From positions 3,187 to 67,186 of the forward strand of contig CAURVP010000002.1 of NCBI GenBank assembly GCA_963528475.1: a stretch of DNA of 64,000 nt, given 5' to 3'. The position numbers and the translations under genes are program-made. The notes under the pieces were generated by a model. It was not told the DNA's origin and did no database searches. It saw only the letters and a program-made list of their open reading frames with translations. Origin of the DNA: an uncultured Candidatus Saccharibacteria bacterium. Its GTDB lineage: Bacteria; Patescibacteriota; Saccharimonadia; Saccharimonadales; Saccharimonadaceae. Below, piece after piece: positions 5,305-40,303 of this stretch; the first letter of the stretch is position 1, and the number at the start of each line of letters is the position of its first letter.

Positions 5305-5319
5305 CGTATATAATAAAAC

Positions 5320-5687: not shown

Positions 5688-6503
5688 CTAAGACAACAAC
5701 TGATGAATGCGCGATGTAATATGGAGCCGCGCTGCCCGAGCGGCTTTATGCCAGCCAACCGATGCGAAACGCTGAGCATAGCTACTATATACTGCATTTT
5801 CTTCTGCAAAGCGCACGCCATCCTTTGACTTTTCCTTGCTTGAGAGCGACTGGGCAAAGCGCCGGTATTGGAATGTCTCAGTCTGATCAAAAGCAAGTAC
5901 TGCTCCGTCAAGAATAAAATCAAATACCAAGACAAGATCTTCTAGTATAGTATACGTCGCATCAAAGGAGTACCGCTTAAGTGTCGCTGTCTTCCAGACA
6001 ATCGATGGGAAGTAGAGCCAGTCGCCATGACTCAGAGACGTTGCGAGCTTTTCGCCTGAGTAAAGCCCCGATTTACGAGGCTGCAAAAATCGCTTAACAC
6101 GGTCAACCAATGGGAGATATAGCTGCCCCTTATCATTAATCACTTGCACTCCTGGCTGATAAAAATCTGCCTCACCAATTGTCTGTAGTGCTACTGCTAC
6201 GCACTCCGGCAAGAGCCGATCATCACACCCCACAATCATACAGTGTGGTGCCGTTACGTGCTGGACGGCAAAGTTGAAGTTATTGGTAATGCCGAGGTTT
6301 TTCTTGTGTCGGATATAGGTGATGCGTGAATCGGCGAGTTTTGTGTAATAATCGCGTGCTTCGGTCGATGGGTAGTGATCATCAAGAATGGTCAGGTGCC
6401 AGTCGTCGCTCGTCTGAGCCAAGACAGAGTCAACCGCTTCTTTGAGAAGAGCGAATTCGCCCCAGTAAGGGATGACGATATCGAGTGATTTATTTTTTGT
6501 CAT
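5688..6503 (-). CDS. Glycosyltransferase family 2
   Basis: ORF 5688..6632 trimmed to MTKNKSLDIVIPYWGE (ATG 6503). It has GT-A N-terminal beta-strand/helix and ILDD acidic motifs. Overlaps the upstream gene stop by 14 nt. Confidence 0.75.
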   Translation of the reverse strand: MTKNKSLDIVIPYWGEFALLKEAVDSVLAQTSDDWHLTILDDHYPSTEARDYYTKLADSRITYIRHKKNLGITNNFNFAVQHVTAPHCMIVGCDDRLLPECVAVALQTIGEADFYQPGVQVINDKGQLYLPLVDRVKRFLQPRKSGLYSGEKLATSLSHGDWLYFPSIVWKTATLKRYSFDATYTILEDLVLVFDFILDGAVLAFDQTETFQYRRFAQSLSSKEKSKDGVRFAEENAVYSSYAQRFASVGWHKAARAARLHITSRIHQLLS

Positions 6504-10616: not shown

Positions 10617-12167
<1,551 letters not shown>

Positions 12168-12206
12168 TAGGCGTCTAAACCAGACCTTGCTATTTTTACA
12201 GTAACA

Positions 12207-12245
12207 AAACAGCCCAATATCCATGGGCTGTTTATTATTTTTTAT
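12207..12245 (+). terminator. Rho-independent terminator after the cytidylyltransferase-like gene
   Basis: AACAGCCCA (12208-12216), 7-nt loop, TGGGCTGTT (12224-12232), then a T-rich tail TATTATTTTTT. Confidence 0.7.
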
Positions 12246-12390
12246 AGAGTAACCTTTAGCAGACAATAATGGTTTGTATACATTTATTACTCAGAGATGC
12301 AAAAGTACATAGCAAGAAGTCTACGTCCTTGAATAATAAAATTATTGTATGAACAAATAATATACTCAGTTTGAATATAATAAACACTTT

Positions 12391-12422
12391 GTTCATTGCA
12401 TAATACCATCATGGGGTATTAT
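12391..12422. repeat. Second, partial copy of the 26624 palindromic element
   Basis: GTTCATTGCAtAATACC atcat GGGGTATTaT. The left arm is 16/17 identical to the 26624 copy. The one change (A to T at element position 11) is matched by T to A at pairing position 31. Lies just 3' of the galE stop. Confidence 0.7.
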
Positions 12423-12428
12423 CTAAAT

Positions 12429-13451
12429 TTAATTCTTATAGCCGTTTGGGTTGTGAGACTGCCAGCGCCAGGAGTCTTCACAGGCTTGTTCGATGGACAA
12501 TTCTGCTTGCCAACCAAGCTCTTGCTGTGCCTTACTACAGTCGGCATAGCAAGCTGCAATATCACCAGCCCGGCGTGGTTTTATCTCGTATGGAATGTCA
12601 TGCTTGCACGCTTTGCCAAAGGCGCTAATGATCTCCAAAACAGAGGTACCATGGCCAGTGCCAAGGTTATAGGTGTGCTCACCTGGCTGCATGTGTGATA
12701 GGGCGGCTACATGTCCCTTAGCAAGATCGACGACATGAATGTAGTCGCGTACACCAGTGCCATCAGGTGTGTCGTAGTCATTACCAAATACACCAACGCT
12801 TTGCAATTTTCCAACCGCAACTTGTGCAACATAGGGCAGGAGATTATTAGGGATGCCATTTGGATCTTCACCAATCATACCTGACACATGCGCACCAATT
12901 GGATTAAAGTAGCGCAAGATAGTCGCCTGGAAGTCGGGGTGCGCCACGCAATAGTCACGAATGATCTGCTCTATCATATATTTCGTCCAGCCGTATGGAT
13001 TGGTAATACCGGTGCCAGTGCGTGATGATTCAGTGAGTGGCAATGACTCTGGTGTGCCATAGACCGTCGCAGAGCTTGAGAAAATAAGTCGATGCACTCC
13101 ATGTTGTCGCATTGCAGCTAAGAGGGTGAGGGTTGAGCTAAGATTGCAGTCATAGTATTCCAGCGGTTTCTCAACCGACTCACCAACTGCCTTGAGTCCA
13201 GCAAAGTGAATCACAGCACTGATATCATGCTTGGTAAAAATCGCATCGAGTGCCGATCGGTCGCGCACATCAGCCTCGACAAAGGGGATGGTTGTGCCAG
13301 TAATTGTTTCGACACGTCGCAGACTTTCGCGGCTGGCATTGGCGAGGTTGTCAATAACGACGACGTCAAATCCTGCCGCAATAAGCTCAATAATGGTGTG
13401 GCTGCCAATATACCCAGCGCCACCAGTGACTAAAATCGTTTCTCTACTCAT
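12429..13451 (-). CDS. galE: UDP-glucose 4-epimerase
   Basis: ORF trimmed to MSRETILVTGGAGYIGSH (ATG 13451). YGWTK catalytic motif is present. TATACT (13459-13464, minus) lies 7 nt upstream. Confidence 0.9.
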   Translation of the reverse strand: MSRETILVTGGAGYIGSHTIIELIAAGFDVVVIDNLANASRESLRRVETITGTTIPFVEADVRDRSALDAIFTKHDISAVIHFAGLKAVGESVEKPLEYYDCNLSSTLTLLAAMRQHGVHRLIFSSSATVYGTPESLPLTESSRTGTGITNPYGWTKYMIEQIIRDYCVAHPDFQATILRYFNPIGAHVSGMIGEDPNGIPNNLLPYVAQVAVGKLQSVGVFGNDYDTPDGTGVRDYIHVVDLAKGHVAALSHMQPGEHTYNLGTGHGTSVLEIISAFGKACKHDIPYEIKPRRAGDIAACYADCSKAQQELGWQAELSIEQACEDSWRWQSHNPNGYKN

Positions 13452-13746
13452 ATCACCTAGTATACCCCTTCGTCGAAAAAATGTCGAACATATCATATTA
13501 TTCTTTGTCTATAGTATGAACATATCGGCTTAACTATTGCTGAGAATGAACACCGCATTCGTTCTTGCTTTTTTGTCATTTTTCTTTATCTTTTATAGGT
13601 AAAGTACTATTGGTGTAAAAACATCAACACAATCTAACAGAGAAAAATCATTGTAATTTTTACATTCTTGCAAAATTGTTTAAAAATGAGAGTACACTAG
13701 AAGGCAAAGACCAAAGCGCCATAATACAAGAGGAAAGGAAAAACCT

Positions 13747-15573
13747 ATGTGTGGAATAGTTGGATATATCGGAACGCGGCCAGCGCAGGGTGTACTGCTG
13801 ACGGAGCTCAAGCGGCTTGAATATCGCGGATATGATAGTGCTGGTATTGTTACACTCGACAAGGATGCTGCGCCAACGTTGCTCCGAACGAAAGGCAAGG
13901 TGGCTGCGCTGAATGAGCTTACAGCTCGCCACAAGACAACTGATACGGTTGGCATTGGTCACACTCGCTGGGCAACCCACGGGGCACCCAGCAAACGCAA
14001 CGCTCATCCACATCAGGTGGGGCAGGTCTACGTTGTACATAACGGCATTATCGAGAACTATCAGGCGCTCAAGACGATGCTTGCAGCACATGAGTATGAA
14101 TTTAAGAGTGATACTGATACTGAAGTATTGACGGCGCTCATTGACTACCTGCACAAGCAAGCACCAGACCTCTTGGCGGCAGTGCGAGGTGCGCTCAAAA
14201 TGGTGGTAGGCACGTATGGTTTAGCAGTTGTTCAAGCGAATGACCCTGATGAGATTATTGTGGCACGCAAGGGTAGCCCACTCATTGTTGGGCTCGGCGA
14301 TGGCGAAACGTACATTGCCAGTGATGCATCGGCCTTGGTGGGGTATACCAACCAAGTGGTCTATCTGCATGATGGCGAAGTAGGGCGCTGCACTCGCACT
14401 GGCCTCGAGCTCCAAACGACGGATTCGCAAGTGGTTGACGTGCAAGTAGAGACGCTAGAGATGGACTTGCAAGCTATTCAAAAACAAGGGTACGACCACT
14501 TTCTCCTCAAAGAAATATTTGAGCAGCCGACTAGCCTTGCGGCAACGCTGGCCGGGCGTGTGATTGTCGCACAGCGCTATGCCAGGCTGGGCGGCATAGG
14601 TCTGAGTGATACTGCATTGCGGCAGATTAAGCATGTGATGATTGTGGGCTGTGGCACGGCGTATTTTGCGGGGATGCAGGCTAGTTATTTTATTGAGCAA
14701 CTGACTGATGATGTAACAGTAAGTGTAGAGATTGCTAGTGAGCTGCGCTACCGAGCATATAACATCCCCGAGCATACCGTTGCGCTCATTGTGAGCCAGA
14801 GTGGTGAGACGGCCGATACATTGGCCTGTCTGACGGAACTCAAACGACGGGGTGTGACGTGCCTTGGTGTCGTCAATGCAGTGGGGAGCACGATTGCGCG
14901 CGAAGTTGACGGTGGAGTATATGTACACGTGGGGGCGGAGATCAGTGTGGCCAGCACCAAGGCCTTTACTTCGCAAGTGGCGGCAATGACAATTTTTGGC
15001 CTTATGCTCGCAGCGGCCAAGGGAACGAACCCACAGCTGATAGGTGAGTTTATTAACGAGCTTGAGATGCTACCAGCCGAGATCGAAAAGACGCTGGCTA
15101 AGCAAGCTGATAGCATCAAAAATATCGCACATAATTATGCTCACTATAATCATGCGCTTTATATTGGTCGCGATACACTTTACCCAGCTGCACTTGAGGG
15201 CGCACTTAAGCTTAAGGAGGTAAGCTATATTCATGCTGAGGCTTATGCGGCAGGCGAGCTCAAGCATGGGCCAATTGCCCTGATCGACGATCATTTCTTC
15301 GAAATGTGTTATTTGCAGGACAACTGGCTGTACGAAAAATCGCAGAGTAATTTGATCGAGATGAATGCACGTGGTGCTCATGCGATTGTTATTACCGATA
15401 CGGATAAACGCGTACCTGCCGAGACGGTGGTGCGCGTTGCAACTAAGCTGCAACACCTCACGCCAATTTTGTTTAATGTTATATCACAGCTTTTTGCTTA
15501 CTATATGGCAGTGGAGCGGGGACACGACGTCGACCAGCCGCGCAATCTTGCCAAGAGCGTGACGGTGGAGTAA
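13747..15573 (+). CDS. glmS: Glutamine--fructose-6-phosphate aminotransferase
   Basis: N-terminal MCGIVGYIG (Ntn Cys), two SIS domains, and a C-terminal KSVTVE. 608 aa. Confidence 0.95.
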   Translation: MCGIVGYIGTRPAQGVLLTELKRLEYRGYDSAGIVTLDKDAAPTLLRTKGKVAALNELTARHKTTDTVGIGHTRWATHGAPSKRNAHPHQVGQVYVVHNGIIENYQALKTMLAAHEYEFKSDTDTEVLTALIDYLHKQAPDLLAAVRGALKMVVGTYGLAVVQANDPDEIIVARKGSPLIVGLGDGETYIASDASALVGYTNQVVYLHDGEVGRCTRTGLELQTTDSQVVDVQVETLEMDLQAIQKQGYDHFLLKEIFEQPTSLAATLAGRVIVAQRYARLGGIGLSDTALRQIKHVMIVGCGTAYFAGMQASYFIEQLTDDVTVSVEIASELRYRAYNIPEHTVALIVSQSGETADTLACLTELKRRGVTCLGVVNAVGSTIAREVDGGVYVHVGAEISVASTKAFTSQVAAMTIFGLMLAAAKGTNPQLIGEFINELEMLPAEIEKTLAKQADSIKNIAHNYAHYNHALYIGRDTLYPAALEGALKLKEVSYIHAEAYAAGELKHGPIALIDDHFFEMCYLQDNWLYEKSQSNLIEMNARGAHAIVITDTDKRVPAETVVRVATKLQHLTPILFNVISQLFAYYMAVERGHDVDQPRNLAKSVTVE

Positions 15574-25074: not shown

Positions 25075-26529
25075 CTACTGCTTATATTGAGAGTATGACT
25101 CGCCAGCGCTGAGGGGATGGCCAAATAGGTTCTTGACCGTGACAAATCTGTACCCTTGCTTTTGTAATGCATCGAGGATACACGGCACGGCATCGACGCT
25201 GGTTTTGTGGATATCGTGCATGAGAATAATCGCACCAGGTGCGGCATTGGCAATGGCACGGCTGCAGACAATTGCTGCATCGTGATCGGCCCAATCACGT
25301 GTATCGATTGACCACATGATGGCTGGCATAGTAAGCTGCTGGAGCTGCGCACGCACCTTGTCATTCATGCCACCATATGGTGGACGGACCATTGTTGGTG
25401 TCACGCCAGTAGCTGCAGCAACGGCACTGTTTGTACTCTCAATCTCTTGGCGGATGACAGCTTCGTCGCGCTTAGGAAGGAGTGGATGATTCCACGTGTG
25501 GTTGCCTATTTGATGTTTGCGTTGAACTGCTTGCTGGAGCGCGATACTGTATGGTGCAACATTTCGCCCCACCACAAAGAAGGTTGCCTTAGCATGATAG
25601 CGATCAAGATGCTCGAGTAGTGTTTGCGTGTATAACCCAGGCCCATCGTCGAAGGTGAGTGCAATACAGCGATAACGCACGCAGTCGGTTGATGATGATA
25701 ATGCTGATGGTGGAATATCAAAAAGCCTCTTGGTGGTTGGGTTTTGGATAAAATGGCTGAGCTGCTTGATTGGCAATTTCAGGCTAATGATTCCATCTAC
25801 ACCAATACCAAGCGAGCGTTTATCGAAGAGAAAGCCAATTGTTTTTCGGTCGTGTACTAAAAAGTTCGTGATAGATTCTGGAGTAATGACTCCCGCTACT
25901 TTTACTGGCTCTGCATGCGGGTAGCGCTGCTGCACCTGTTTACGTAGAGCAATAACAAGCTCATTTGTCCCTGCGATTGATGTATCAACGAGGGCAGACG
26001 ATGTAATTGGCTGGCCGCTCATTTTATCGAATGTCCAGTAGTGAACCGTGTTGGTTGGTAGAGTGTGAGGTATAGTAGTACGGATAAACACAGCGAGAGA
26101 AATCGTCGTGTCATCTTGGTGAATAATGCGATAGGTAATGGTGTTGCTTCGAGCTGCTACATCAGTTGAAGTTATTTGTTGAGATGGAATTGCACTATCG
26201 ATGATTGTGGCAACCGTTTTGTCTATGTTGGCAATGCCTGTTTGTGGATAGGTAATGATTGTTTGGTGCGATGCCGATTGATGCTTCATGATGCGTGAGC
26301 GAACAGCACCACGAGAAGATAGTGTGTAAGTGTGCGTTGTTGATGGTGGTATATGTGTGATGTGTGATGATTCTTGTGATTGTTGGCCATACCAAAGTGA
26401 GCAGATTAGTAGACTAGTAATAATAAGGCAGAGCCATGTATAAAAAAAGCCGCGAGGTTTTGTAGGTGTTGTATCACTTTCAACACCTGAATACACTTGA
26501 GCATCTGTCTCTTCCACCTTATAGAACAT
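25075..26529 (-). CDS. Membrane-anchored polysaccharide deacetylase (NodB domain) with N-terminal accessory domain
   Basis: ALTFDDGP, GNHTWNHP and PPYG motifs. Start set to ATG 26529 (MFYKVEE), 6 nt after a minus-strand TACAAT (26536-26541). Confidence 0.85.
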   Translation of the reverse strand: MFYKVEETDAQVYSGVESDTTPTKPRGFFYTWLCLIITSLLICSLWYGQQSQESSHITHIPPSTTHTYTLSSRGAVRSRIMKHQSASHQTIITYPQTGIANIDKTVATIIDSAIPSQQITSTDVAARSNTITYRIIHQDDTTISLAVFIRTTIPHTLPTNTVHYWTFDKMSGQPITSSALVDTSIAGTNELVIALRKQVQQRYPHAEPVKVAGVITPESITNFLVHDRKTIGFLFDKRSLGIGVDGIISLKLPIKQLSHFIQNPTTKRLFDIPPSALSSSTDCVRYRCIALTFDDGPGLYTQTLLEHLDRYHAKATFFVVGRNVAPYSIALQQAVQRKHQIGNHTWNHPLLPKRDEAVIRQEIESTNSAVAAATGVTPTMVRPPYGGMNDKVRAQLQQLTMPAIMWSIDTRDWADHDAAIVCSRAIANAAPGAIILMHDIHKTSVDAVPCILDALQKQGYRFVTVKNLFGHPLSAGESYSQYKQ

Positions 26530-26535
26530 AGCTAT

Positions 26536-26541
26536 ATTGTA
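26536..26541 (-). promoter_or_regulatory. -10 box TACAAT, 6 nt before ATG 26529 (leaderless candidate)
   Basis: The minus strand reads GCTACAATatagctATG. Confidence 0.4.
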
Positions 26542-26623
26542 GCGCGAACCGAGGTAAGAACAAAATGGGATAAGCGGAGTCTGATACAAAAGACATTATA
26601 AAATAGAATATGCACTACTTTAT

Positions 26624-26664
26624 GTTCATTGCAAAATACCCCATTGGGGTATTTTGCAATGAAC
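26624..26664. repeat. 41-bp perfect palindrome (20-bp arms, 1-nt centre)
   Basis: GTTCATTGCAAAATACCCCA t TGGGGTATTTTGCAATGAAC, in the divergent intergenic region between the deacetylase operon and the Pnkp-like gene. Confidence 0.9.
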
Positions 26665-26830
26665 TATTAATAAATATCATTCATAAAATAAGATAAAATT
26701 GCTACATACCCCTAGTGAGGTAGAAGCCTTTTCTAACAGATGATGATATAATATAAAAACAAGAGTAAATTACTTGAGTTAGATATAGTTAAGCGAAATC
26801 TTGAAAACAACGCTACAGAAAGGAGAAAAT

Positions 26831-29017
26831 ATGCGACATCTTTTTATTACACGTGGAATTCCTGGATCTGGTAAAAGCACCTTTTTGCAATCTGCTGGGC
26901 TTGGCCCATATACACTATCTCCTGATACTCTGCGCCTAGCGTATAGCAGCCCAGTGATGAATGATGCAGGACGCATCGTTATGCCATATCAGGATGATCG
27001 ACGGGTGTGGCAGCAGCTTCACGAGTTGCTTGATATGCGCATGGCTCGTGGTGAGCTTATTGTGGTTGATGCAACACATACAGCGAGCTCGTACTTTCAG
27101 CAGTATGCTCAGCTTGCGCGGAAGTATCGCTACAAGCTGTACGTTATAGATTTTGCGGATGTGCCTCTCAAAGTTTGTCTGGAGCGCAATCGTCAGCGTG
27201 CACCACATAAGATGGTCGATGATGTAGTTCTCGAGAAAATGCACGCTCGTCTCTCCACGTGTGCCATACCAAAACAATACACTGTCATACAACCAGCGGC
27301 AGTAAAAGAGCTTATCGCATCGTACCAGAAACCGATTAATTTGAGCCAGTATGAGCATATTCATCACATTGGTGATATCCAAGGATGCTATACGCCACTG
27401 CGCGAATATTTCGAGCAGCACCCCTATACCGAGCACGATTATTATATCTTTACAGGAGACCTACTTGATCGCGGTACAGAGAATGCAGAAGTGTTGCAGT
27501 ATGTGTGTGATAATTTTGTTGACAAGCCAAATGTGACGTTTATTGAGGGTAACCATGATGGTTATATTTGGCAGTGGCTTACTCACCAGCCGATAAGAGC
27601 GCGAGAGTTTAATGGCCGAACTCGAGCGCAGCTAGAGCGTGCCAATATAGATAAGCGTGCTGTTAGTCGCTTGATGAACTCCATGCAAGATTGCCTCTAC
27701 TACACATGGCATGATAAGCGGGTATTTGTGAGTCATGCGGGAGTGAGCAATTTACCAGAGAATCCTCTGCTGCTTGCTAGTCAGCAGTATATTCGTGGTG
27801 TGGGGCGCTATGATCAAGTTGGTGCTATTGACGATGCTTTTGTTGCTCACACCTCTGATAATATCTATCAAGTGCATGGTCATCGCAATGCTCAGAATTA
27901 TCCAGCACAGTATAATCAGCGGTGCTTTAATCTCGAGGGCAAAGTGGAGTTTGGTGGCACGCTACGGGTTGCTCAGCTTGCCGAGGAGGGTTGGTCGGTC
28001 GTTGAGGTAAGCAACCAGTCGGCTGAAGGCATCCTCCATCCGGAAAACGCACCGCTCATCCATGGTCTGCGTGCCAATAAACTGATTAGTGAACGGTCAC
28101 TGCCGGGTAATATTAGCTCATTTCACTTTAAACCAAAGGTGTTTTATGACAAAAAATGGACGGCGCAAACAGTGCGAGCTCGTGGACTATTTATGAATAC
28201 ACTGACGAACGAGATTGTAATTCGCGCCTATAACAAATTCTTCAATATTGGTGAGCGACGAGAAACTGAATTTGCTGCGCTCAAAGATCAACTTGTTTTT
28301 CCAGTGCGTGCCTGGGTGAAGGAGAATGGTTATCTTGGCTTGGTAGGCTATGATGCGACACTGGGTGACCTCGTTTTTGCGTCGAAAACAACAACGGAGA
28401 GTGAATTTGCTGGGTGGTTTCGCCGCTTGTTTTTGCAGCGCTATGGTAAGCATGTCGATGCGATCCGTCAGTATCTTGCCGAGCACAATGTTTGTTTGGT
28501 CTGCGAGGTGATACTCCCGACAGAGGATCCACACATTATCGAGTATGCACAAGACCGGATTGTTTTGCTCGATATAGTGCATCGCCAGGCGAAATTTGCC
28601 GCAGTTGACCAAGTTGAGCGTGAGCGATTTGCGGCTATGTTTGGCATGGAGACCAAGCGGCTTGCGGCGACGCTCCAGACCTGGGAGGAGTTTGCGGCCT
28701 GGTATGAGCAGGTGCAGGGGCTTGACTACTTGTATGACGGTGTACCAATCGAGGGCTTTGTAATAGAGGATGCTCGGCATTGGCAGGTCAAAGCCAAACT
28801 TGATTATTACTCATTTTGGAAGCGGATGCGTGGTGTGCTTGATGGACTTAAGGAGGGGCGCAGGCCAAGGCGTGCCGCTGCCTACCCGTATCCTGAGTAT
28901 GCAGCACGTGTCATTGCCTATATGCAGGGCATCCCTACTGATGTGTTGGCTCAGATGTCTATTATAGATGTCCGTCGCCGCTGGCAGCGAGAGCAAGAAA
29001 AAGAAAAAGCCGTATAG
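26831..29017 (+). CDS. Pnkp-like trifunctional protein: P-loop polynucleotide kinase, calcineurin-type phosphoesterase, RNA-ligase-like nucleotidyltransferase
   Basis: Start at MRHLFITRGIPGSGKST after SD aaaggag. The phosphoesterase blocks are GDIQG, GDLLDRG, GNHD and HGH. A C-terminal KENGYLG is a ligase motif I candidate. The domain order matches bacterial Pnkp. Confidence 0.7.
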   Translation: MRHLFITRGIPGSGKSTFLQSAGLGPYTLSPDTLRLAYSSPVMNDAGRIVMPYQDDRRVWQQLHELLDMRMARGELIVVDATHTASSYFQQYAQLARKYRYKLYVIDFADVPLKVCLERNRQRAPHKMVDDVVLEKMHARLSTCAIPKQYTVIQPAAVKELIASYQKPINLSQYEHIHHIGDIQGCYTPLREYFEQHPYTEHDYYIFTGDLLDRGTENAEVLQYVCDNFVDKPNVTFIEGNHDGYIWQWLTHQPIRAREFNGRTRAQLERANIDKRAVSRLMNSMQDCLYYTWHDKRVFVSHAGVSNLPENPLLLASQQYIRGVGRYDQVGAIDDAFVAHTSDNIYQVHGHRNAQNYPAQYNQRCFNLEGKVEFGGTLRVAQLAEEGWSVVEVSNQSAEGILHPENAPLIHGLRANKLISERSLPGNISSFHFKPKVFYDKKWTAQTVRARGLFMNTLTNEIVIRAYNKFFNIGERRETEFAALKDQLVFPVRAWVKENGYLGLVGYDATLGDLVFASKTTTESEFAGWFRRLFLQRYGKHVDAIRQYLAEHNVCLVCEVILPTEDPHIIEYAQDRIVLLDIVHRQAKFAAVDQVERERFAAMFGMETKRLAATLQTWEEFAAWYEQVQGLDYLYDGVPIEGFVIEDARHWQVKAKLDYYSFWKRMRGVLDGLKEGRRPRRAAAYPYPEYAARVIAYMQGIPTDVLAQMSIIDVRRRWQREQEKEKAV

Positions 29018-32923: not shown

Positions 32924-32981
32924 GGAATGATCTGTTAGCACTCTTGCAATTAGAGTGCCAATTGGCTATACTAAGACAGAT

Positions 32982-34103
32982 ATGGCGAAGCGAGATTATT
33001 ATGAGGTGCTTGGTGTTGCCAAAAGCGCCAGCGATGATGACATTAAGCGGGCATTCCGCAAATTGGCAGTGAAGTACCACCCAGATAAAGCGGGTGGGAG
33101 TGAAGAGAAATTCAAAGAGATCAACGAAGCGTATGAGGTCCTGAAGGACAAGCAAAAGCGCCAGCGGTATGACCAATTTGGCCATGCGGGCGTTGGTGGT
33201 GCTGCCAGCGGTAGTGGTGGCGGTAACCCATTTGCTGGCTTTGGCGACTTTGGCCAGGGGCAGAATATCCACTTTGATTTTGGTGATGGTGGTCTAGGAG
33301 ATATCTTTGGCCAGTTCTTTGGTGGTGCTGCTGGTGGCAGTGCAAGCCAAGGCCCGTCACGCGGTCGTGATGTTGAGACGAGTGTGACGCTCGAATTTGA
33401 AGAAGCGATCTTTGGCAAAGAAGTTGCTCTTGCACTAACACTTGATGACGAATGTGAGCATTGCCACGGTAGTACCGTCGAGCCCGGCTCAAGCCTTAAG
33501 AGCTGTCCAGATTGTAAAGGCACTGGCCAGCGCGTGCGGACAATGAATACAATGTTTGGCCCCATTCAGCAGGCGGTAACGTGTGAGACATGCCAAGGCC
33601 GGGGGAAGATTCCTGAGAAGGCCTGTACAGTCTGCCAAGGTAGCGGTGTGCAGCGCCGCGAGCAAACGATTACCGTCAAGATTCCCGCTGGTATCGATAA
33701 TGGCTCGACGATTCGTCTCCGTGGTCGTGGTGAAGCTGTCGGTGGTGGCAGCAAGGGCGACCTCTATGTGCAGGTGCGAGTCAATCCACACAAGACGTTT
33801 AGCCGTGAAGGTGATGTGATCCTGAGTGAGGAGCATATTGGTATGGCAGATGCAGCGCTTGGTGCCGAGCTCGACGTTAAGACAGTCGATGGGACGATTA
33901 CAATGAAGGTGCCAGCTGGTACGCAATCGGGCACTGACTTCAAGTTATCTGGTCACGGCGTGCCACACATGCGAAGCGACAAGCGTGGGCCTCATATCGT
34001 GACAGTAGTGGTCGACACCCCAACCAAACTAAACCGCCGCCAGAAGGAAATCCTCCGCGAGTTTAATGACACATTAGGGCGGAAGGGGATATTTGGGTTG
34101 TAA
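32982..34103 (+). CDS. dnaJ: Molecular chaperone DnaJ
   Basis: [12 protein letters not shown], a KYHPDK (HPD) motif, a G/F-rich linker, and four CxxCxGxG repeats. No dnaK or grpE lies adjacent. Confidence 0.95.
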
Positions 34104-34281
34104 CTCCAGGTAGGTACTGGTGTAGAATTAAACTACTTGTGGTGAAGGGTTTGATTCTAATCTGTTTGCTGGGTGGTGTAACTTTGCTAGATCATTTCAA
34201 AATTCGATAACGGAAACGTGGCTTTGCTCACAGTGCTCTGCAAATATAAGAGAAAGAGTCTTGATTTATACGGTGGTTTAT

Positions 34282-34290
34282 TGCTAAAAT
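34282..34290 (+). promoter_or_regulatory. Extended -10 box TGcTAAAAT in front of the ATP-grasp/peptidase cassette
   Basis: 9 nt upstream of ATG 34300. Confidence 0.45.
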
Positions 34291-34299
34291 AGCCTCACT

Positions 34300-35877
34300 A
34301 TGATGACGAGTTATACTCCCGAGAATAGACCACTTCCATCTCATGGTATGCAGGTGAAAGAAGCTCGGCGTAGCCAGAATAGCTCTGTCGATATAGATCC
34401 TGAAGTGTTCCGAGGAAAGTACCAGGAACTTGTCGAGCGATCACCGAAAGTTATTGAATCACTTGTTCCCGATCAAGAAAGCAAAGAAGTGGCAATTGAC
34501 AGTCTAATTACAGGTAGTACCACGTCTTTTCAGCAAAAGTATCCGGTCATTGAGAAGTATTCCGACGAAGATTATACAACCATGCAAGATACTGCAGAAA
34601 CGCTGATGTCTATGGCTGAGTCTATGTCAGAGCCAGAGAGGACAGTCTATCTCCAGGCGATTGAGGCTCGCAAGCAAGAGGCGAACTTGATAGTAGCGAT
34701 GAGGGATTATAAAGCAGCAGCAGATCCAATAGCAAGAGAAGCAGCAGCACAACGTTTTATGGAGATAAATATTACGCTCTATGGTGAGCCAGATAAAACA
34801 ACATATGAGTCATTACTCGGCGAAAAAATTGCCAACATCTTTCATAAAAAGCGCAGTCAAAGCGCCGAGATAATCTTTCAGGAGCTTCGGAATCTTCTTC
34901 CAGAAAATGTAATAGATGGTACACGTGCACAAGATCGATTTCGTCCATCTACTGAGACTATGAGATGGATGAACGAAGTTGTTCATGGATTGTATGACAA
35001 TATGCTTCGACATGTTGATAGCTATGTAGAAGCGCATAAATCGGAGCTTCAAATAGAATCACACGATGAGACGGTTATAAAAATCCAGCCGACACACCTT
35101 CAAGATATCTTTCGGAATATCTTGACTGAGGAATTCCTTGCGTCATCCAAAGAGACTGAAGAAAGTAGCCAGACAGGTGATACACAGGGTGCACAAGCTG
35201 CGACAGACTGGGATAATACCGAGACGAGAAGTGCTGAGAAAGATACGGGTTGGAAGATTGAGGTGACAGAGGCAAAATCGATCAATGTTGATCCAGATAC
35301 GAGACATATCAGAATACCCCAAGACCGAGAAGCTATGTCTGTTAATGAAGTAAAACGGCTAGTTGTGCACGAAATAGGCGTGCATGTCTTAACGCGAATG
35401 ACTGGTGGTTCAACAAACCTTGAGCCGCTCGCACAGGGCTTAGCTGGTTTTAATGATACACAAGAAGGGCTTGGGAAAGCAATGGAACACGCCCTTGAAG
35501 GAGAATATCAAGAAGCTGGTATAGATCACTATATTACTGCTGGGCTTGCCTATTTTGACAACAAGGATTTCAAAGGTGCTTATGATGTGAAGTGGCGTCT
35601 CAAACTTCTCGAGAGCCTCAAGCCTGATCAAACACCAACACAAGCACAGATTGACAAAGCCAAGCAATGGGCAGCAAACACAACAATGCGTATCTACCGG
35701 GGTACTGATGATCTGCCACTCTTTAAGGATCTCTGCTATTACAATGGGTCGAAAGAAGTATGGGAGTATCTAGAGAAAATTTGTGGTGATGATTTGCAGC
35801 TGAGTTTATTATTAGCTGGTAAAATTAATACCTCAAAGAAGCACCAGAGAGTCATACTTGAATCACATAGTACTTAA
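34300..35877 (+). CDS. DUF1704/MATCAP-like putative metallocarboxypeptidase (HExxxH + QEGL motif)
   Basis: VHEIGVH (35368-35385) is followed about 25 residues later by TQEGLG (35461-35475). This pairing defines the 'QEGLA motif' DUF1704 family as I recall it. The N-terminal half is long, acidic and unrecognised. Confidence 0.6.
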   Translation: MMTSYTPENRPLPSHGMQVKEARRSQNSSVDIDPEVFRGKYQELVERSPKVIESLVPDQESKEVAIDSLITGSTTSFQQKYPVIEKYSDEDYTTMQDTAETLMSMAESMSEPERTVYLQAIEARKQEANLIVAMRDYKAAADPIAREAAAQRFMEINITLYGEPDKTTYESLLGEKIANIFHKKRSQSAEIIFQELRNLLPENVIDGTRAQDRFRPSTETMRWMNEVVHGLYDNMLRHVDSYVEAHKSELQIESHDETVIKIQPTHLQDIFRNILTEEFLASSKETEESSQTGDTQGAQAATDWDNTETRSAEKDTGWKIEVTEAKSINVDPDTRHIRIPQDREAMSVNEVKRLVVHEIGVHVLTRMTGGSTNLEPLAQGLAGFNDTQEGLGKAMEHALEGEYQEAGIDHYITAGLAYFDNKDFKGAYDVKWRLKLLESLKPDQTPTQAQIDKAKQWAANTTMRIYRGTDDLPLFKDLCYYNGSKEVWEYLEKICGDDLQLSLLLAGKINTSKKHQRVILESHST

Positions 35878-35891
35878 ACTAAATACGAGCA

Positions 35892-37259
35892 ATGAAAGTT
35901 CAATACGATAAAAGTTTAAAGATAGCAGGCGTTAGTATACAACCATGGGCAAGAATTGGGCCTGAGCAGTGGTTTGATAATTACAAAATTGCTTCACTAG
36001 CTGGCTGGAATATGCGCAGTCAGAATGTAGAGCACATGAATAGTCTCGCTTATATGCGCGATCAGTGCGAGAGACCTTATACAGGTGAACTGACTACACA
36101 GGCTCTTTTGCAAGATCCAATATTCCAAGACATGATAATAACTCATTTACCTGAGTACCGTATTTTTACGTATAAACCTTTTATAATTCCTGAGCGATTG
36201 AAACAAAGCAGTTTGCATTTTTTGCCTAGAAACGATATGTACGTGTTGGCTCAGAAGTTTGAGAATAAATCACGGTTTCGGCGTATTTTTGCAGAGCGTC
36301 TTTGCAATATTCCACCACATAAAATATACCCTTGGCGAGAAATGTTATCGGATGAGGGATATTTTTCTAATCTCTGTGATGGACGTAGTAAGATTGTTTT
36401 GCAGGATGCTGCACTTGGTGGAGGGAAGGGGTCGTTTATTATCGATAGCTTCGAGTCGTTCTGTTCTGCAATAAATACAATGCAAAATAGCAATGGTTTG
36501 GTTGGTGAAGTAGTTGTATCAGACTACATTGCTGATGGCCGTGATTGGTCGGTGCAGGGCGTTGTAACGCGCTATGGGGTCTTCGTAGGGCCAGTGCAGC
36601 GGCAGATTATTGCAGACCCGAATTTATCAAATACAAGTATTCCTGGTACTGAGAAGTTTTGCGGTATTGAAATATTGGCAGATGATCAACACACATGGCA
36701 GAGTAGTCAATTAACGAAAAATGCACGCGTCATAGGCCAGGAATTATACGACAGAGGGTATCGTGGTATTTTTGGTGTTGATTCTTTGGTAACGGATGAT
36801 GCAGTGTATACTATCGAAGTTAACGCACGCATTACGGGTGCAACGCCGCTTCTTACAATGAGCTATAATGCAAAGAAGCATATCCCCTTCTATCTTCTTC
36901 ATATTTTAGAACTAACGAATGCTGATTATACTATTGAAGACAGCTCATACAGTAATGACTATAATGATTGCGCGCTGATGGTTCTCCATCAACGAGACAG
37001 TGAGACAGGTGTCGCTGACAGCCCTCGGTCGGGATTATATAATGAAAAGATGCAAATCATAGGCGATATAATGTCATTCGATAGGTCTTCCTATGCAAAA
37101 CAGGTTTTTGTACAGGATTATACAAGGAGCGAGAGGTCTATTGCGCAAGGGTCTCGATTGGCGTCTATATTTACTAATTTTCGTGTTATGGATGAGGAGG
37201 GTGTGCTTATGAGAGAATCAAGAAATATTATTGATATAATTGAAAATAGTTCGAAGTAA
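35892..37259 (+). CDS. ATP-grasp ligase, uncharacterised subfamily
   Basis: Glycine loop LGGGKGSFII and a Mg/ATP block GIFGVDSLVTDDAVYTIEVNARITG (E-x-N intact). Starts 14 nt after the upstream stop. Confidence 0.6.
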   Translation: MKVQYDKSLKIAGVSIQPWARIGPEQWFDNYKIASLAGWNMRSQNVEHMNSLAYMRDQCERPYTGELTTQALLQDPIFQDMIITHLPEYRIFTYKPFIIPERLKQSSLHFLPRNDMYVLAQKFENKSRFRRIFAERLCNIPPHKIYPWREMLSDEGYFSNLCDGRSKIVLQDAALGGGKGSFIIDSFESFCSAINTMQNSNGLVGEVVVSDYIADGRDWSVQGVVTRYGVFVGPVQRQIIADPNLSNTSIPGTEKFCGIEILADDQHTWQSSQLTKNARVIGQELYDRGYRGIFGVDSLVTDDAVYTIEVNARITGATPLLTMSYNAKKHIPFYLLHILELTNADYTIEDSSYSNDYNDCALMVLHQRDSETGVADSPRSGLYNEKMQIIGDIMSFDRSSYAKQVFVQDYTRSERSIAQGSRLASIFTNFRVMDEEGVLMRESRNIIDIIENSSK

Positions 37260-37273
37260 ATAAATGTATCGCT

Positions 37274-38782
37274 ATGAATATGGAGCAAGAAAGCAATAAT
37301 AATATCAAAAAAGCAGACCTGTCACGGTATAGCATTACCTCTCGATTACTAATGAAGGAGGCACTTCGAAAAGGGTACCAGGTCACAACAGTTCCAGGTC
37401 GTTTAGCAACATCACATGTGGTGCGCTGTGAAAAGGACGGCAAAGAGCTTTACTTTTATAATCTTAATACTGCACTAAACCCTTCATATGCAGTTCAGGT
37501 GAATGAGGACAAGATCTGGACGAATAACATATTACACCAATCGCATATACAAATACCAGATACATATCCATTAAAAATAAATAGACCCGAAGACGTGGTA
37601 ATTGACGATACACTTCGAAAAATGCTAGAGTCTCATGAGTATCTTGTAGTTAAACCTGCTACAGCAAACTACAGCGATGATACTCCTGTTAGCGCTGGTG
37701 ACGAAGAAAGTTTGCTTCGTGCAATACACCATGTGTATCAGAATAGTGGTGGACAGCCTGAGGTGATTGTTCAGCAAATGGTTTTTGGGCAAGAATATCG
37801 CTTCTTGGTGTTAAATAAAAAAGTCATTGCAGTAGCATATCGTCGACCACCATATGTTGTTGGAGATGGAGTATCAACAATACGAACCTTGATAAGTAGA
37901 AAAAATAATAATTGCTTAAAGCATGACAACAGACACGCTAGTTTAGTAGCAAAAATAAACATCGAAGATGTGTCGAGACATGAAGGTGCTCACTTTTTGC
38001 AACAAGTTCCCGAGAAAGGTCGTGCTGTTGAGGTTTTAGATACATTGAATCTGAGCAGGGGTGGTGAAGCGGTTGATGTCACGAGTTATGTGTCTGATGA
38101 ACTCAAAACCATAGCAATTCAAGCGGCATCAGCATGTTTTCTTGGTATTGCTGGTATTGATATTGTAACGGATAACATTAGTGGCGATGGAAATGATAGC
38201 TATGTCGTAAGAGTGAAGGCATCTCCAGGGATACGAATGCACCAATTTCCAACAGAAGGCAAACCTCGGAATGTTGCACGAAAACTATTTCATGCTATTG
38301 AAAAAACGGCGCATCCTATCGGCAAAAAGATAGTTATGATTGGCCGAGTTGAAAAGGTTGCTTTGCCTGATCTTGTTAACGAAAAATTTAAAGCTCGGAT
38401 AGATACAGGGGCAACAGTCTCGTCTATATGGGCAAGTGATATTCGAGTTGATAAGACAGGCCTCTATTGCAAACTATTTGGTGAAGGCTCCCCAGTGTAT
38501 ACTGGTGAGGAGTTGCATTTTTCTGAGTATTCCATGCGCTCTGTTCGGAGTTCGAATGGTTATGAGGAATTGCGGTATCAAGTTGTCATTAATGTAAGTT
38601 TGGCAGGAAGGCGAGTGAAAGCAAAAGTTACACTAGCAGACAGATCGGGGCAGATCTACCCAATGCTGATTGGAAGAAATATTTTGCGTAATAAATTCAT
38701 CGTTCATGTTGCAGAGGGTGATATTGATAAGAAGGCCGAAAGTAGTAATCGTCAAGAACTACGCCAAAATGGACTACAATAG
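37274..38782 (+). CDS. Fusion: cyanophycin-synthetase-like ATP-grasp module with degenerate catalytic motifs + DUF785/RimB-like retropepsin aspartic peptidase
   Basis: EYRFLVLNKKVIAVAYRRPPYVVGDGVSTIRTLI and NLSRGG resemble the cyanophycin synthetase/GshAB ATP-grasp. The E-x-N block reads VVRVKASPGIRMH, and the Gly loop reads KPATANYSDD. The C-terminal part has RIDTGAT (D-T-G 38402-38410) and LIGRNIL. Confidence 0.65.
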   Translation: MNMEQESNNNIKKADLSRYSITSRLLMKEALRKGYQVTTVPGRLATSHVVRCEKDGKELYFYNLNTALNPSYAVQVNEDKIWTNNILHQSHIQIPDTYPLKINRPEDVVIDDTLRKMLESHEYLVVKPATANYSDDTPVSAGDEESLLRAIHHVYQNSGGQPEVIVQQMVFGQEYRFLVLNKKVIAVAYRRPPYVVGDGVSTIRTLISRKNNNCLKHDNRHASLVAKINIEDVSRHEGAHFLQQVPEKGRAVEVLDTLNLSRGGEAVDVTSYVSDELKTIAIQAASACFLGIAGIDIVTDNISGDGNDSYVVRVKASPGIRMHQFPTEGKPRNVARKLFHAIEKTAHPIGKKIVMIGRVEKVALPDLVNEKFKARIDTGATVSSIWASDIRVDKTGLYCKLFGEGSPVYTGEELHFSEYSMRSVRSSNGYEELRYQVVINVSLAGRRVKAKVTLADRSGQIYPMLIGRNILRNKFIVHVAEGDIDKKAESSNRQELRQNGLQ

Positions 38783-38836
38783 AGACAGAGAGCATATAAT
38801 AAGCAAAATCGATAAAATAATAGTACGAGGTATGGA

Positions 38837-39754
38837 GTGAAAATCGCAATACTCAGTAACGGCAATGTGAACTACTCAACGCTTCGCCTCAAGGAAGAGG
38901 CGGAGAGGCGCGGACACAGTGTGAGAGTGATTAAATACCGCAAATGTTATGTGACGATTGATGAGAAGAATCCAACGGTGATGTATGATGGTGAAGCAAT
39001 TGATCAGTACGATGCAATAATTCCGCGCATTGCAAGCTATATGACTCGCTACGGCACAGCAGTAGCACGTCAGTTAGAAATGGCGTATCCACGCACACTT
39101 TTTGTTAATCGCTCGATTGCGATTACCCGGGCGCGCGATAAACTGCGCTCGACACAGCTGTTAGCTCGAGGCGGGGTAGCTATTCCTAAGACAGTGTTTA
39201 GTCGTAACTCAGCCGATATAGACGATCTCCTTAACGAACTTGGTGGTACGCCAGTTATCATCAAGCTAGCTCGTGGTACTCATGGCAATGGTGTAGTGTT
39301 GGCAGAGACGAAGAAGGCGGCAAAGTCGGTGCTCCAGGCGCTGTACCTCACCAATGAGGATGGGACGAATATTCTCTTGCAAGAATTTATTCGTGAGTCG
39401 GCTGGAGTGGATATCCGTGCCTTTGTGGTGGGGAGCCGTGTGGTGGCGAGTATGAAGCGCCAGAGCCTAGATGACGACTTTCGCTCTAATCTCCACAAAG
39501 GAGGCGAAGGAACGCCGATCCGCTTAACGGATACCGAGCGTCGCATGTGTTTGCGGGCAGCTAAGGCGATGGGCTTGACGGTGGCGGGTGTTGACTTTAT
39601 GCGCTCGAGTCGTGGGCCGCTAGTGCTTGAGGTCAATGCGAGCCCAGGCTTTGGGATAGAGAAAATTACGCGGCGTAATGTAGCCAAACCGATCATTGAA
39701 TATATTGAGCGCAATGCCAAGCGGCAGCACAAGAAGGATCGTGTTGGGGCATAA
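38837..39754 (+). CDS. rimK: RimK-type alpha-L-glutamate ligase (ribosomal protein S6 modification family)
   Basis: GTG start. VIIKLARGTHGNGVVL, LLQEFI and GPLVLEVNASPGF are all canonical. 305 aa. Confidence 0.85.
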   Translation: MKIAILSNGNVNYSTLRLKEEAERRGHSVRVIKYRKCYVTIDEKNPTVMYDGEAIDQYDAIIPRIASYMTRYGTAVARQLEMAYPRTLFVNRSIAITRARDKLRSTQLLARGGVAIPKTVFSRNSADIDDLLNELGGTPVIIKLARGTHGNGVVLAETKKAAKSVLQALYLTNEDGTNILLQEFIRESAGVDIRAFVVGSRVVASMKRQSLDDDFRSNLHKGGEGTPIRLTDTERRMCLRAAKAMGLTVAGVDFMRSSRGPLVLEVNASPGFGIEKITRRNVAKPIIEYIERNAKRQHKKDRVGA

Positions 39755-39805
39755 CCATTCAAACGTATTTGCTTTTCTCATAACGCTTATGTTGAATTGG
39801 TGTCA

Positions 39806-39814
39806 TGGTATAAT
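39806..39814 (+). promoter_or_regulatory. Extended -10 box TGgTATAAT, 6 nt before ATG 39821
   Basis: Read directly from the sequence. Confidence 0.5.
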
Positions 39815-39820
39815 GATGGC

Positions 39821-40303
39821 ATGATGTTGCTTGGATTGCTTGCTGGCATGGCTGTGGTTTTGGCTGGTTTGGTATATGTAGCGAAGCGGCATTTTGGGCT
39901 ACCAGTCATAGGCCTGGCGGTTGGTATGGTAATGACACAGCTGTGGGCGGCAGATGTCGTGCCGTATGCTGCTGGGGTTGGCATAGGCATTGACCGGTCT
40001 GCTTTGCTTGCGATGGTGACGATTGTGCTGACGGTGCTACCAGCTGTGGTGCTGGTGTGTTGCGGCTCGGTGGTGAGTCAGCGCTGGTGGCGAATTGGTG
40101 GCTCGCTTGTCTTTGGTATTATGGCGGTGTATGTGCTGTTTGGTGCGCTGAGTAGCTTCGTGCCAGTTGATGAGACAAGCAAGACGGTTGTGGCAGCACT
40201 GGACGGGTCTCATGCAGCGGTTGTAACGATAGGGTTTGCATGTGCACTTGTTGACACGCTCGTGGCTTGCGCAAAGGGCGCAAAACCACACAAGAAAAAG
40301 TAG
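39821..40303 (+). CDS. Small integral membrane protein, unknown function
   Basis: Start set to ATG 39821 because TGgTATAAT (39806-39814) lies inside the longer ORF, 6 nt upstream. Has 4-5 TM helices and a basic tail. Confidence 0.55.
   Translation: MMLLGLLAGMAVVLAGLVYVAKRHFGLPVIGLAVGMVMTQLWAADVVPYAAGVGIGIDRSALLAMVTIVLTVLPAVVLVCCGSVVSQRWWRIGGSLVFGIMAVYVLFGALSSFVPVDETSKTVVAALDGSHAAVVTIGFACALVDTLVACAKGAKPHKKK

Follow-up and report, generated by a model that had tools for sequence, protein, structure and literature searches.

A modular RimB–RimK locus of Saccharibacteria as a candidate writer and eraser of peptide tails or polymers

To our knowledge, very few bacterial systems other than RimB–RimK can both write and erase a protein's peptide tail, and studies of RimB–RimK have been confined to Proteobacteria. 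RimK glutamylates the C-terminus of RpsF (ribosomal protein S6) in α-linkage and also makes free poly-α-Glu, and its partner RimB cuts runs of at least 5–6 Glu, binds RimK, and stimulates the RimK ATPase, with free poly-Glu being detected in vitro only when RimB and RimK were present together (PMC11957791). Here, we present a related locus from a 64,000-nucleotide stretch of Candidatus Saccharibacteria (TM7) DNA (contig CAURVP010000002.1 of assembly GCA_963528475.1; this whole stretch is the window hereinafter), which comes from the oral Nanosynbacter group. Four open reading frames (ORFs) on the + strand of this locus code, in order, for a MATCAP/DUF1704 zinc peptidase (ORF1), an orphan ATP-grasp protein (ORF2), a cyanophycin synthetase (CphA)-like ATP-grasp domain fused to a RimB-type retropepsin (ORF3), and RimK (ORF4). 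We classify the system as an uncharacterized variant of RimBK specific to the Candidate Phyla Radiation (CPR), and incline, at slightly better than even confidence, to its being an expanded, modular RimB–RimK writer and eraser of a peptide tail or polymer, specific to Saccharibacteria and related CPR lineages.

Of the described systems, RimABK/RimBK of Pseudomonas (PMC11957791, PMC7343187, PMC10092738) comes closest. The window locus shares with it a canonical RimK matching the Pseudomonas enzyme (7qyr) over its full length, a RimB-type domain with the DTG motif encoded directly upstream, proteins that all look cytoplasmic, and the expected chemistry, viz., ATP-dependent addition of α-Glu and its endoproteolytic removal. 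Unlike RimABK, it is devoid of RimA (an EAL phosphodiesterase), and it adds a MATCAP-family peptidase, an orphan ATP-grasp, and a probably dead CphA-like domain on RimB. Further differences lie in RimB itself, which is part of an exchangeable low-GC module, differs strongly between most alleles that share the same RimK, and scores far under the cut-off of the RimB equivalog profile, and in the position of the locus 3' of a dnaJ gene that is predicted to be controlled by a CIRCE operator (controlling inverted repeat of chaperone expression). The RimBK hybrids of Desulfotalea, Flavobacteriales, and Rhodobacterales (PMC11957791) resemble ORF3 in combining a retropepsin and an ATP-grasp domain in one polypeptide. 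However, their RimB is N-terminal to a true RimK, whereas in ORF3 the order is reversed, with an N-terminal ATP-grasp domain that is CphA/GshB-like and degenerate in this allele, and a separate intact RimK is encoded next to it.

More distant parallels are found in four other systems. RloABC of Pseudomonas aeruginosa comprises a secreted retropepsin (RloA), a seven-transmembrane inactive transglutaminase (RloB), and an ATP-grasp (RloC) (PMC12239564); it thus also places a retropepsin of the same Pfam family beside a RimK-related ATP-grasp, and its link to osmotic stress is comparable to the heat-shock context described below. In contrast to RloA, the window protease has no signal peptide and no accompanying transglutaminase-like membrane protein, and its scores against the RloA1–3 NCBIfam profiles are far below their cut-offs. 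The N-terminal domain of ORF3 is nearest to the G (backbone-polymerizing ATP-grasp) domain of the cyanophycin synthetases CphA1 and CphA2 (PMC9262961, PMC10273328), and the primer-generating site of CphA1 (PMC9262961) is a precedent for coupling a ligase with chain cutting. Unlike these enzymes, ORF3 retains the G-domain core alone, without their N domain or Mur-ligase M domain, and its metal-binding E-x-N motif is gone in this allele. The enzymes acting on tubulin tails (TTL/TTLL, MATCAP/TMCP, and CCP; PMC10499314) likewise comprise ATP-grasp C-terminal ligases and an HExxxH/E-G metallopeptidase, although action on acidic tails would have to be extrapolated to the window proteins; some accessory ligases of sister alleles also show weak Pfam TTL matches. 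Unlike the eukaryotic system, the window has no tubulin, its ligases are of the RimK, CphA, and PurT classes rather than TTL, an aspartic endopeptidase is added, and ORF1 is very far from human MATCAP. Finally, a protein annotated as DUF1704 (COG3930) is encoded beside a COG0189 ATP-grasp in Vibrio vulnificus (VV2_1203/VV2_1204; PMC3091676), and low salinity induces both genes of a DUF1704–ATP-grasp pair of Photobacterium (A0J47_RS17025/RS17020) and likewise rimK (PMC10308900). These two annotated cases support the statement, in an earlier note made from the letters of the window alone, that proteobacterial DUF1704 genes neighbor RimK-like ligases; as in the window, DUF1704 lies there beside a RimK/GshB-type ATP-grasp, but, unlike in the window, no RimB is reported next to the pairs. 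Our literature search, which did not extend to the survey of Iyer et al. 2009, found nothing on RimK in Saccharibacteria or on DUF1704 with ATP-grasp, and no paper treating the four-part arrangement, in agreement with the earlier note, which knew of no characterization of it.

The gene and domain content of the locus is as that note had read it: the four ORFs, their strand, and the intergenic gaps of 14, 14, and 54 nt coincide exactly with the ORF list, the motifs it cited (VHEIGVH, TQEGLG, the E-x-N of ORF2, DTG, and GRN) are all present in the translations, and its four domain assignments were recovered by Pfam and NCBIfam profile scans and by fold and PDB comparisons. Terminator-like sites on the + strand were found neither between dnaJ and ORF1 nor within the cassette, and we take the four genes to form a functional unit because of these tiny gaps and the lack of internal terminators.

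The organization of the locus in related genomes is two-tiered, with a constrained backbone of dnaJ and rimK and a low-GC module exchanged between them as a block. When the window is compared with the related locus L002, a DNA identity of ~93% ends at the dnaJ stop codon (34103) and restarts at 38836, one base 5' of the rimK start; inside the module ORF1 is 58% and RimB 41–42% identical at the protein level, and L002 has neither ORF2 nor the ORF3 ligase domain. The GC content of the module is 0.413, as against 0.509 and 0.518 in its flanks (rimK itself, 0.512), and that of the other three alleles is 0.39–0.40. Between most alleles RimK is 97–100% identical and RimB merely 32–42%, the alleles of L002 and L028 having a common RimB type (92% identical), which places RimB in the exchangeable module and RimK in the backbone.

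The extent of this exchange became apparent in a scan of species-representative genomes with RimK as the query, which yielded 80 loci, nearly all labeled Saccharibacteria and two labeled only ‘uncultured bacterium’, that we classified by tblastn and Pfam. The recurrent order around divergent homologues is dnaJ, variable genes, a RimB-like gene, rimK, a gene for a small membrane protein (in some cases together with DUF192), comEC, and yebC. Wherever upstream sequence exists, a RimB gene or domain lies directly 5' of RimK (80/80 genome loci and 40/44 metagenome loci). RimK is 96–100% identical to that of the window in about 30 species representatives, and in 18 of these 30 loci the same four-gene cassette is found, with identities to the window of 84–98% for ORF1, 84–98% for ORF2, 83–100% for the ORF3 N-domain, and 97–100% for the RimB domain. 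The co-conservation on which the earlier note had made its proposal depend is observed in these 18 loci. The remaining close loci have alternatives at the same site: a MATCAP-like gene followed by rimB and rimK (1/30), a 303-aa RimK-like ATP-grasp followed by rimB and rimK (5/30), or a 311-aa ATP-grasp followed by a 459-aa ATP-grasp::RimB fusion and RimK (5/30, with an incomplete sixth locus, L034, having the same RimB type). Thus, at least four alternative modules occupy this site in close relatives, and the RimB type tracks the module rather than RimK. The four-part arrangement of the note is accordingly not a fixed machine: the three upstream genes are swapped wholesale, and RimB and RimK alone are near-universal in the loci examined.

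In the sister clade, whose RimK is 79–82% identical, dnaJ directly abuts rimB–rimK in four loci (L050, L057, L063, and L068), and in others the interval between dnaJ and rimB contains the gene of a polytopic membrane protein of 1044 aa, alone or accompanied by a MATCAP-like gene, or additional ATP-grasp genes. The membrane protein (e.g., L044:6337–9471; 1037–1044 aa with ~25–29 predicted transmembrane helices) occurs in about 27 further sister-clade loci, in Nanosynbacter-type genomes with a RimK of 80–82% identity to that of the window, and has no match in Pfam, PADLOC, or PHROGs. Across the close and sister loci, the module always contains RimB with an intact DTG, together with zero to several accessory enzymes, and every alternative module examined comprises ATP-grasp genes, MATCAP-like genes, or both. 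Parallel cassettes of a MATCAP-like peptidase, a ligase, RimB (with or without a fused ligase), and RimK also occur in distant lineages, namely L094, L108–112, and L133/134/140, with the first of these, a metagenome-assembled genome labeled Nomurabacteria, having the full order dnaJ, MATCAP, ATP-grasp, CphA-like::RimB, and RimK.

Repeated fusions tie the accessory ligases to RimB. The CphA-like::RimB family, of which ORF3 is a member, comprises ~100 clusters, whose few organism-named members are CPR bacteria; RimB is further fused to ORF2-type ligases (P0160, P0170, and P0215) and to RimK-like domains (L031 and L079). Gene adjacency tells the same for ORF2: in an independent sample of 44 metagenome loci with an ORF2 homologue (at least ~30% identity) RimB adjoins it in 41 and RimK in 40, the exceptions being contig ends, such that members of the ORF2 family hardly ever occur without RimB and RimK beside them. 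These fusions and the adjacency in 40–41 of 44 loci show a functional link. The metagenome loci L108–112 have the order dnaJ, MATCAP, ORF2-type ligase, stand-alone RimB, and RimK, which indicates that the CphA-like domain is dispensable.

RimK scores 249.7 bits against TIGR00768 (cut-off 143.4), 186.6 bits against the Pfam RimK domain (PF08443), and 106.9 bits against Rimk_N (PF18030), aligns over its full length (residues 1–294) with Pseudomonas RimK 7qyr at an E-value of 2e-85, and has an intact E-x-N motif (LEVNASPG). Pairwise ratios of nonsynonymous to synonymous substitution (dN/dS; window vs five full-cassette genomes) are about 0.00 for RimK (dN ~0, dS 0.23–0.39), 0.00–0.04 for the RimB domain, and 0.01–0.02 for DnaJ, and rise to 0.12–0.22 for ORF2, 0.15–0.27 for ORF1, and 0.18–0.31 for the 168-aa protein encoded 3' of rimK, with the ORF3 ligase domain having the highest of the set (0.23–0.40). 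All these ORFs are hence real genes, as the range of 0.00–0.40 implies purifying selection, and the RimK/RimB core is constrained like a chaperone, while the accessories evolve faster. The 168-aa protein has five hydrophobic segments and no Pfam match, and in most of the lineages examined it is encoded 3' of rimK, at times with a DUF192 gene preceding it; its membership in the system is uncertain.

The two halves of ORF3 have had different fates. Residues 71–342 match the cyanophycin synthetase profile TIGR02068 with an E-value of 9e-57; the score (192.7 bits) is far from the cut-off of 850, and only profile positions 205–470, corresponding to the G domain, are covered. The same domain matches CphA1 (7lgn; E-value 4e-29) and N-acetylglutaminylglutamine synthetase (E-value 2e-31). 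We rejected its identification as a cyanophycin synthetase, given that the G domain stands alone and its active site is decayed: the E-x-N motif reads R-V-K and the Gly-rich loop NYSDD. At this position all 18 full-cassette loci have RVK, GVK, or RVM; E-x-N itself is kept in every family member with an identity of 59% or less, in CphA/CphA1 and GshAB, and in the accessory ligases of other alleles. The ORF3 ligase domain is thus probably catalytically dead in this allele and is most likely a dead enzyme retained as an adaptor; the working set would therefore be two ligases and two peptidases. The C-terminal half (residues 355–486) scores 58.1 bits against PF05618 (RimB-like; cut-off 27) and reads DTGA and LIGRN, with its DTGA aligned on that of the RloA-type structures 9g59 and 2pma and present in each of the 14 readable RimB variants; against the RimB equivalog NF052261 it reaches 45.9 bits (cut-off 200). 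The aspartate of this motif is the one whose substitution in Pseudomonas RimB (D31E) abolished proteolysis (PMC11957791).

ORF1 is predicted to be a carboxypeptidase. It scores 73.8 bits against the Pfam MATCAP family PF08014 (cut-off 27; E-value 1.6e-20, with the match in two stretches), and PF08014 was found in 120 of 120 ORF1 homologues among the matches listed. The assignment to DUF1704, which the earlier note had singled out for checking, thus holds, although its equation with the ‘QEGLA’ family does not: the proteobacterial QEGLA equivalog TIGR02421 gives 59.8 bits against a cut-off of 338.65, and ORF1 reads VHEIGVH...TQEGLG, with QEGLG in place of QEGLA. By these scores ORF1 belongs to a subfamily different from that of the TIGR02421 proteins and, with them, the Vibrionaceae QEGLA proteins. 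Across 28 ORF1 homologues, H357, E358, H362, E389, and G390 are either invariant or at least 90% conserved, and they match the active-site arrangement of the MATCAP-family enzymes TMCP1 and TMCP2, which have HExxxH and the Glu of an EEG motif as the third ligand and remove from acidic tails the C-terminal Tyr as well as Glu (PMC10499314). In ORF1, for which the AlphaFold2 model is confident (predicted local distance difference test, pLDDT, 82.4), the N-terminal region is long and helical, and residues 282–310 form a disordered acidic insert. Among the related loci, L087 encodes a 450-aa protein that is MATCAP-like (hhalign probability 98%). A 365-aa protein without a Pfam match is encoded directly 5' of ORF2-type ligases in L010 (5890–6987) and again in L122, L123, L143, L144, L148, and L155; we rejected the L010 protein as a divergent MATCAP (hhalign probability 0.2%), and it may be a further accessory component. 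MATCAP-like or CphA-like genes appear split into two ORFs in L017, L024, L051, L077, L083, and L091; these are frameshifts, pseudogenes, or assembly errors and would fit accessory genes decaying now and then.

ORF2 scores 41.3 bits against ATP-grasp_3 (cut-off 23.2), its E-V-N motif is intact, and K126, E309, N311, and R313 show no substitution among 29 sequences. The model (pLDDT 90.8) has a three-domain ATP-grasp fold with a probability of 1.00 to PurT, PurK, and biotin carboxylase and template modeling (TM) scores of 0.5–0.63 at 10–14% sequence identity. We rejected its being any of these enzymes in light of that low identity, of equivalog scores far under the cut-offs (purT, 19.1 bits vs 502; PRK06524, 86.6 vs 684), and of the association of the gene with RimB and RimK. 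Direct sequence searches of the PDB with ORF1 or ORF2 returned no match, and a weak NCBIfam match connects ORF2 to the Asp-Met ligase LdmS. It is predicted to be an amino-acid or peptide ligase, the peptide-ligase role coming from its genomic context.

The transcriptional context suggests a link to heat shock. In the window, a CIRCE operator (chance expectation, 0.03 matches) overlaps the start of dnaJ and marks a putative HrcA-controlled promoter 5' of the cassette; of 65 related loci, 64 have a CIRCE at most 200 nt from the start of dnaJ. The gap between dnaJ and the next gene is ~22–39 nt in L005, L007, and L050, which implies a heat-shock operon including the rim genes in those genomes. 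The spacer of the window CIRCE contains a -35-like TTGCAA, and in this clade dnaJ stands apart from dnaK and grpE, after radC, yet the CIRCE is conserved. The module also has a promoter-like element of its own, with the box that the earlier note had pointed out, TGCTAAAAT, at 34282–34290 and TTGATT 18 nt upstream; the combination is conserved in 17/17 aligned full-cassette sequences, including L014 and L040 with diverged upstream spacers. As the -10 box ends 9 nt 5' of the ORF1 ATG, the mRNA could have little or no leader, and no Shine–Dalgarno-like sequence is evident 5' of ORF1, ORF2, or ORF3, which suggests leaderless or Shine–Dalgarno-independent initiation. Expression would then probably come from the conserved promoter of the module together with read-through from the dnaJ heat-shock promoter.

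Table 1. Features of the RimB–RimK locus and its immediate flanks; positions are those of the window.
Feature	Positions	Strand	Basis
CIRCE operator TTAGCACTC-N9-GAGTGCCAA at the dnaJ start	32935–32961	+	One mismatch vs consensus
dnaJ; backbone gene and left edge of the variable module	32955–34103	+	DnaJ, DnaJ_C, and CXXCXGXG Pfam domains
Exchangeable low-GC module: ORF1, ORF2, and ORF3 (RimB included)	34104–38835	+	Homology breakpoints, GC
Promoter-like TTGATT-18 nt-TAAAAT with TG extension	34261–34290	+	9/12 matches; conserved
ORF1 (525 aa), MATCAP/DUF1704 zinc metallopeptidase, predicted carboxypeptidase	34300–35877	+	PF08014, motifs, fold
ORF2 (455 aa), orphan three-domain ATP-grasp, predicted amino-acid or peptide ligase	35892–37259	+	Profile, residues, fold, context
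ORF3 (502 aa in all), N-domain, CphA G-domain/GshB-like ATP-grasp, probably dead	37274–38308	+	TIGR02068; E-x-N lost
ORF3, C-domain, RimB-type retropepsin-like aspartic endopeptidase	38309–38782	+	PF05618; DTGA intact
rimK (305 aa, GTG start), RimK-family α-L-glutamate ligase; right edge of the module	38837–39754	+	TIGR00768, Pfam RimK and Rimk_N
168-aa protein, about five transmembrane helices, no known family	39797–40303	+	Position 3' of rimK conserved

Based on these components, we propose that RimK would add α-linked Glu in an ATP-dependent manner to a C-terminal carboxylate, with S6, some other protein with an acidic tail, or free glutamate (yielding poly-α-glutamate) as candidate acceptors, and that ORF2 might ligate one or more further residues onto the same chain as an initiator, extender, or cap. 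The MATCAP-like ORF1 would remove residues stepwise from the C-terminus, and RimB would cut inside the acidic run and perhaps also stimulate polymerization, like its Pseudomonas counterpart, while the dead ligase domain of ORF3 could serve as a tether or substrate-binding adaptor for RimB. As RimB types go with the accessory ligases rather than with RimK, it is probably the module that determines how the tail or polymer is composed and turned over, and this would then differ between strains. From these activities one might still infer, by analogy with the tubulin code, the scheme of building, capping, uncapping, and trimming that the earlier note had sketched.

Several observations weigh against this proposal or parts of it. 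A tblastn search of the window and the fetched loci, with S6, S18, and SSB of E. coli and B. subtilis as queries, gave no rpsF, and we found no ORFs with an acidic C-terminus in the window or 12 related loci. RimK scores 320.3 bits against the S6-ligase equivalog NF007764, just under its cut-off of 331. In the fold search, the top PDB match of ORF1 is human MATCAP (7z5g) with a probability of 0.98 and yet weak (E-value 0.023, TM scores 0.25/0.37, root-mean-square deviation ~17 Å), and the ORF1 family profile retrieved no MATCAP sequence from the PDB. The fold class of ORF2 also includes carboxylases and purine enzymes. As for heat shock, the window has a 196-nt gap between dnaJ and ORF1 and a separate promoter in it, and, gene order being highly conserved in small genomes, the position after dnaJ could be a matter of history rather than regulation. 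Moreover, the evidence does not separate modification of a protein tail from synthesis of a free polymer. On the side of possible substrates we note the C-termini of DnaK in some relatives (L005:681–2573, L007:3455–5353, L008:3561–5462, and L010:560–2527), which read ...PVEGEVVDD/E followed by a few more residues; they recall the EEVD tail of eukaryotic Hsp70, and these acidic tails end in Lys, Ser, or similar but not in Glu.

Free-polymer metabolism is accordingly the alternative closest to the tail-or-polymer system that we favor, with which it overlaps, the chemistry being the same. Saccharibacteria are known to lack amino-acid biosynthesis, and the ligases might make cytoplasmic poly-α-glutamate, perhaps decorated or capped by ORF2, that the two peptidases mobilize; such a polymer would store amino acids for an auxotrophic epibiont or provide a polyanion under heat stress. 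The locus does lie 3' of the heat-shock gene dnaJ, an acidic-tailed candidate protein is not encoded close by (window and 12 related loci), and the family of ORF3 is nearest to the polymerizing domain of cyanophycin synthetase. CphA1 itself unites a ligase and a primer-making hydrolase in one polypeptide (PMC9262961), a parallel to the ligase::endopeptidase fusion, and, beyond the in vitro requirement for RimK and RimB together, higher temperature tended to go with longer poly-Glu chains in vivo (PMC11957791). However, the CphA-like domain is dead in the window allele, a Mur-ligase-type side-chain domain, a cyanophycinase, and an isoaspartyl dipeptidase are absent at the locus, and strain-level swaps of ligase type are not obviously expected of a simple storage polymer; we regard a purely metabolic polymer as a possible but rather unlikely explanation. 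Further removed is the synthesis of a small peptide metabolite, in which ORF2 and the accessory ATP-grasps would be L-amino-acid ligases producing a di- or oligopeptide osmolyte, signal, or antibiotic that differs by strain, with the peptidases for maturation or self-protection. The PurT/biotin-carboxylase fold class of ORF2 presumably includes L-amino-acid ligases as well, and such a metabolite could also account for the weak LdmS match, the N-acetylglutaminylglutamine synthetase match of ORF3, a GNAT gene inside the L007 locus, an allelic diversity between strains that is typical of secondary-metabolite loci, and the low-salinity induction of the Photobacterium QEGLA/ATP-grasp pair and rimK (PMC10308900). 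Yet no exporter, precursor peptide, or tailoring enzyme accompanies the genes (direct reading of the 196-nt and 54-nt spacers gave nothing convincing as a precursor of a RiPP, a peptide made on the ribosome and modified after translation), and signal peptides are lacking in the four cassette proteins by inspection of their N-termini. The near-universal partner, furthermore, is a canonical RimK at housekeeping-level constraint and not a metabolite-cluster enzyme, and RimB and MATCAP-type enzymes are known for acting on acidic polypeptide tails; we deem such a product quite improbable.

It could finally be argued that the site is a recombination hot spot with unrelated cargo, with no unit beyond RimB–RimK and with ORF1 through the ORF3 ligase domain being passengers, some of them in decay. 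The sharp-edged replacement and the low GC of every allele would be expected of such a site, as would the direct adjacency of dnaJ to rimB–rimK in L050, L057, L063, and L068, the unrelated 1044-aa membrane protein in many sister-clade genomes, the degenerate ORF3 ligase domain, and the occasional splitting of MATCAP or G3 genes. Against this, the cargo examined is ATP-grasp or MATCAP-like save for the 1044-aa membrane protein, the L010-type 365-aa protein, and the L007 GNAT; ligases are repeatedly fused to RimB; the ORF2 family almost never occurs apart from RimB and RimK; and ORF1 and ORF2 are under purifying selection (dN/dS 0.12–0.27) with intact catalytic motifs. PADLOC gave zero matches for five window proteins or the 1044-aa neighbor, and the sole PHROGs match is to a RimK-like family, on which grounds we also rejected the module as a defense island. 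The fusions and the co-occurrence largely refute a collection of passengers already, and we give it the lowest probability of the alternatives.

Elsewhere in the window, a 738-aa protein encoded at 26801–29017 (+) combines an AAA_33 kinase, a calcineurin-like phosphoesterase, and a T4 RNA-ligase-1 domain; it is a Pnkp-like RNA repair enzyme whose position is kept in L001 and L002. Other patches of low GC (4001–6000, 12001–14000, and 26001–28000; 0.42–0.45 vs ~0.50) may mark further exchanged segments.

The housekeeping-level constraint on RimK in genomes of ~0.7–1 Mb argues that its product matters to these organisms; the earlier note had rightly surmised a small genome from the gene content, the complete genome of a relative in our scan, Candidatus Minimicrobia vallesae, being 706,973 bp. 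That the locus follows a CIRCE-dnaJ hints at a connection, so far unnoticed, of the heat-shock regulon with the chemistry of peptide tails or poly-Glu. For bacterial members of the MATCAP/DUF1704 family, we know of no established function; the locus links such a peptidase genetically to Glu-tail ligases and thereby predicts a carboxypeptidase for acidic tails or oligo-Glu. The occurrence of the same RimK with different ligase/RimB modules provides natural experiments on substrate and product specificity, and, as the cassette enzymes are small and soluble-looking and Nanosynbacter strains can be co-cultured, these predictions are within reach. On a more speculative plane, one might envisage a heat-shock-linked, strain-variable ‘C-terminal tail code’ in ultra-small CPR bacteria, in which a fixed RimK writes a Glu tail on S6 or a different target and swappable writers, a matched RimB, and a MATCAP eraser set the composition and length of the tail in each strain. 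We think this unlikely as it stands; were it true, translation or proteostasis would be tuned by it in stress or on the host, and it would constitute the first pairing of a bacterial MATCAP-family carboxypeptidase with ATP-grasp tail ligases and a prokaryotic counterpart, possibly the evolutionary source, of the logic of the tubulin tyrosination/glutamylation cycle.

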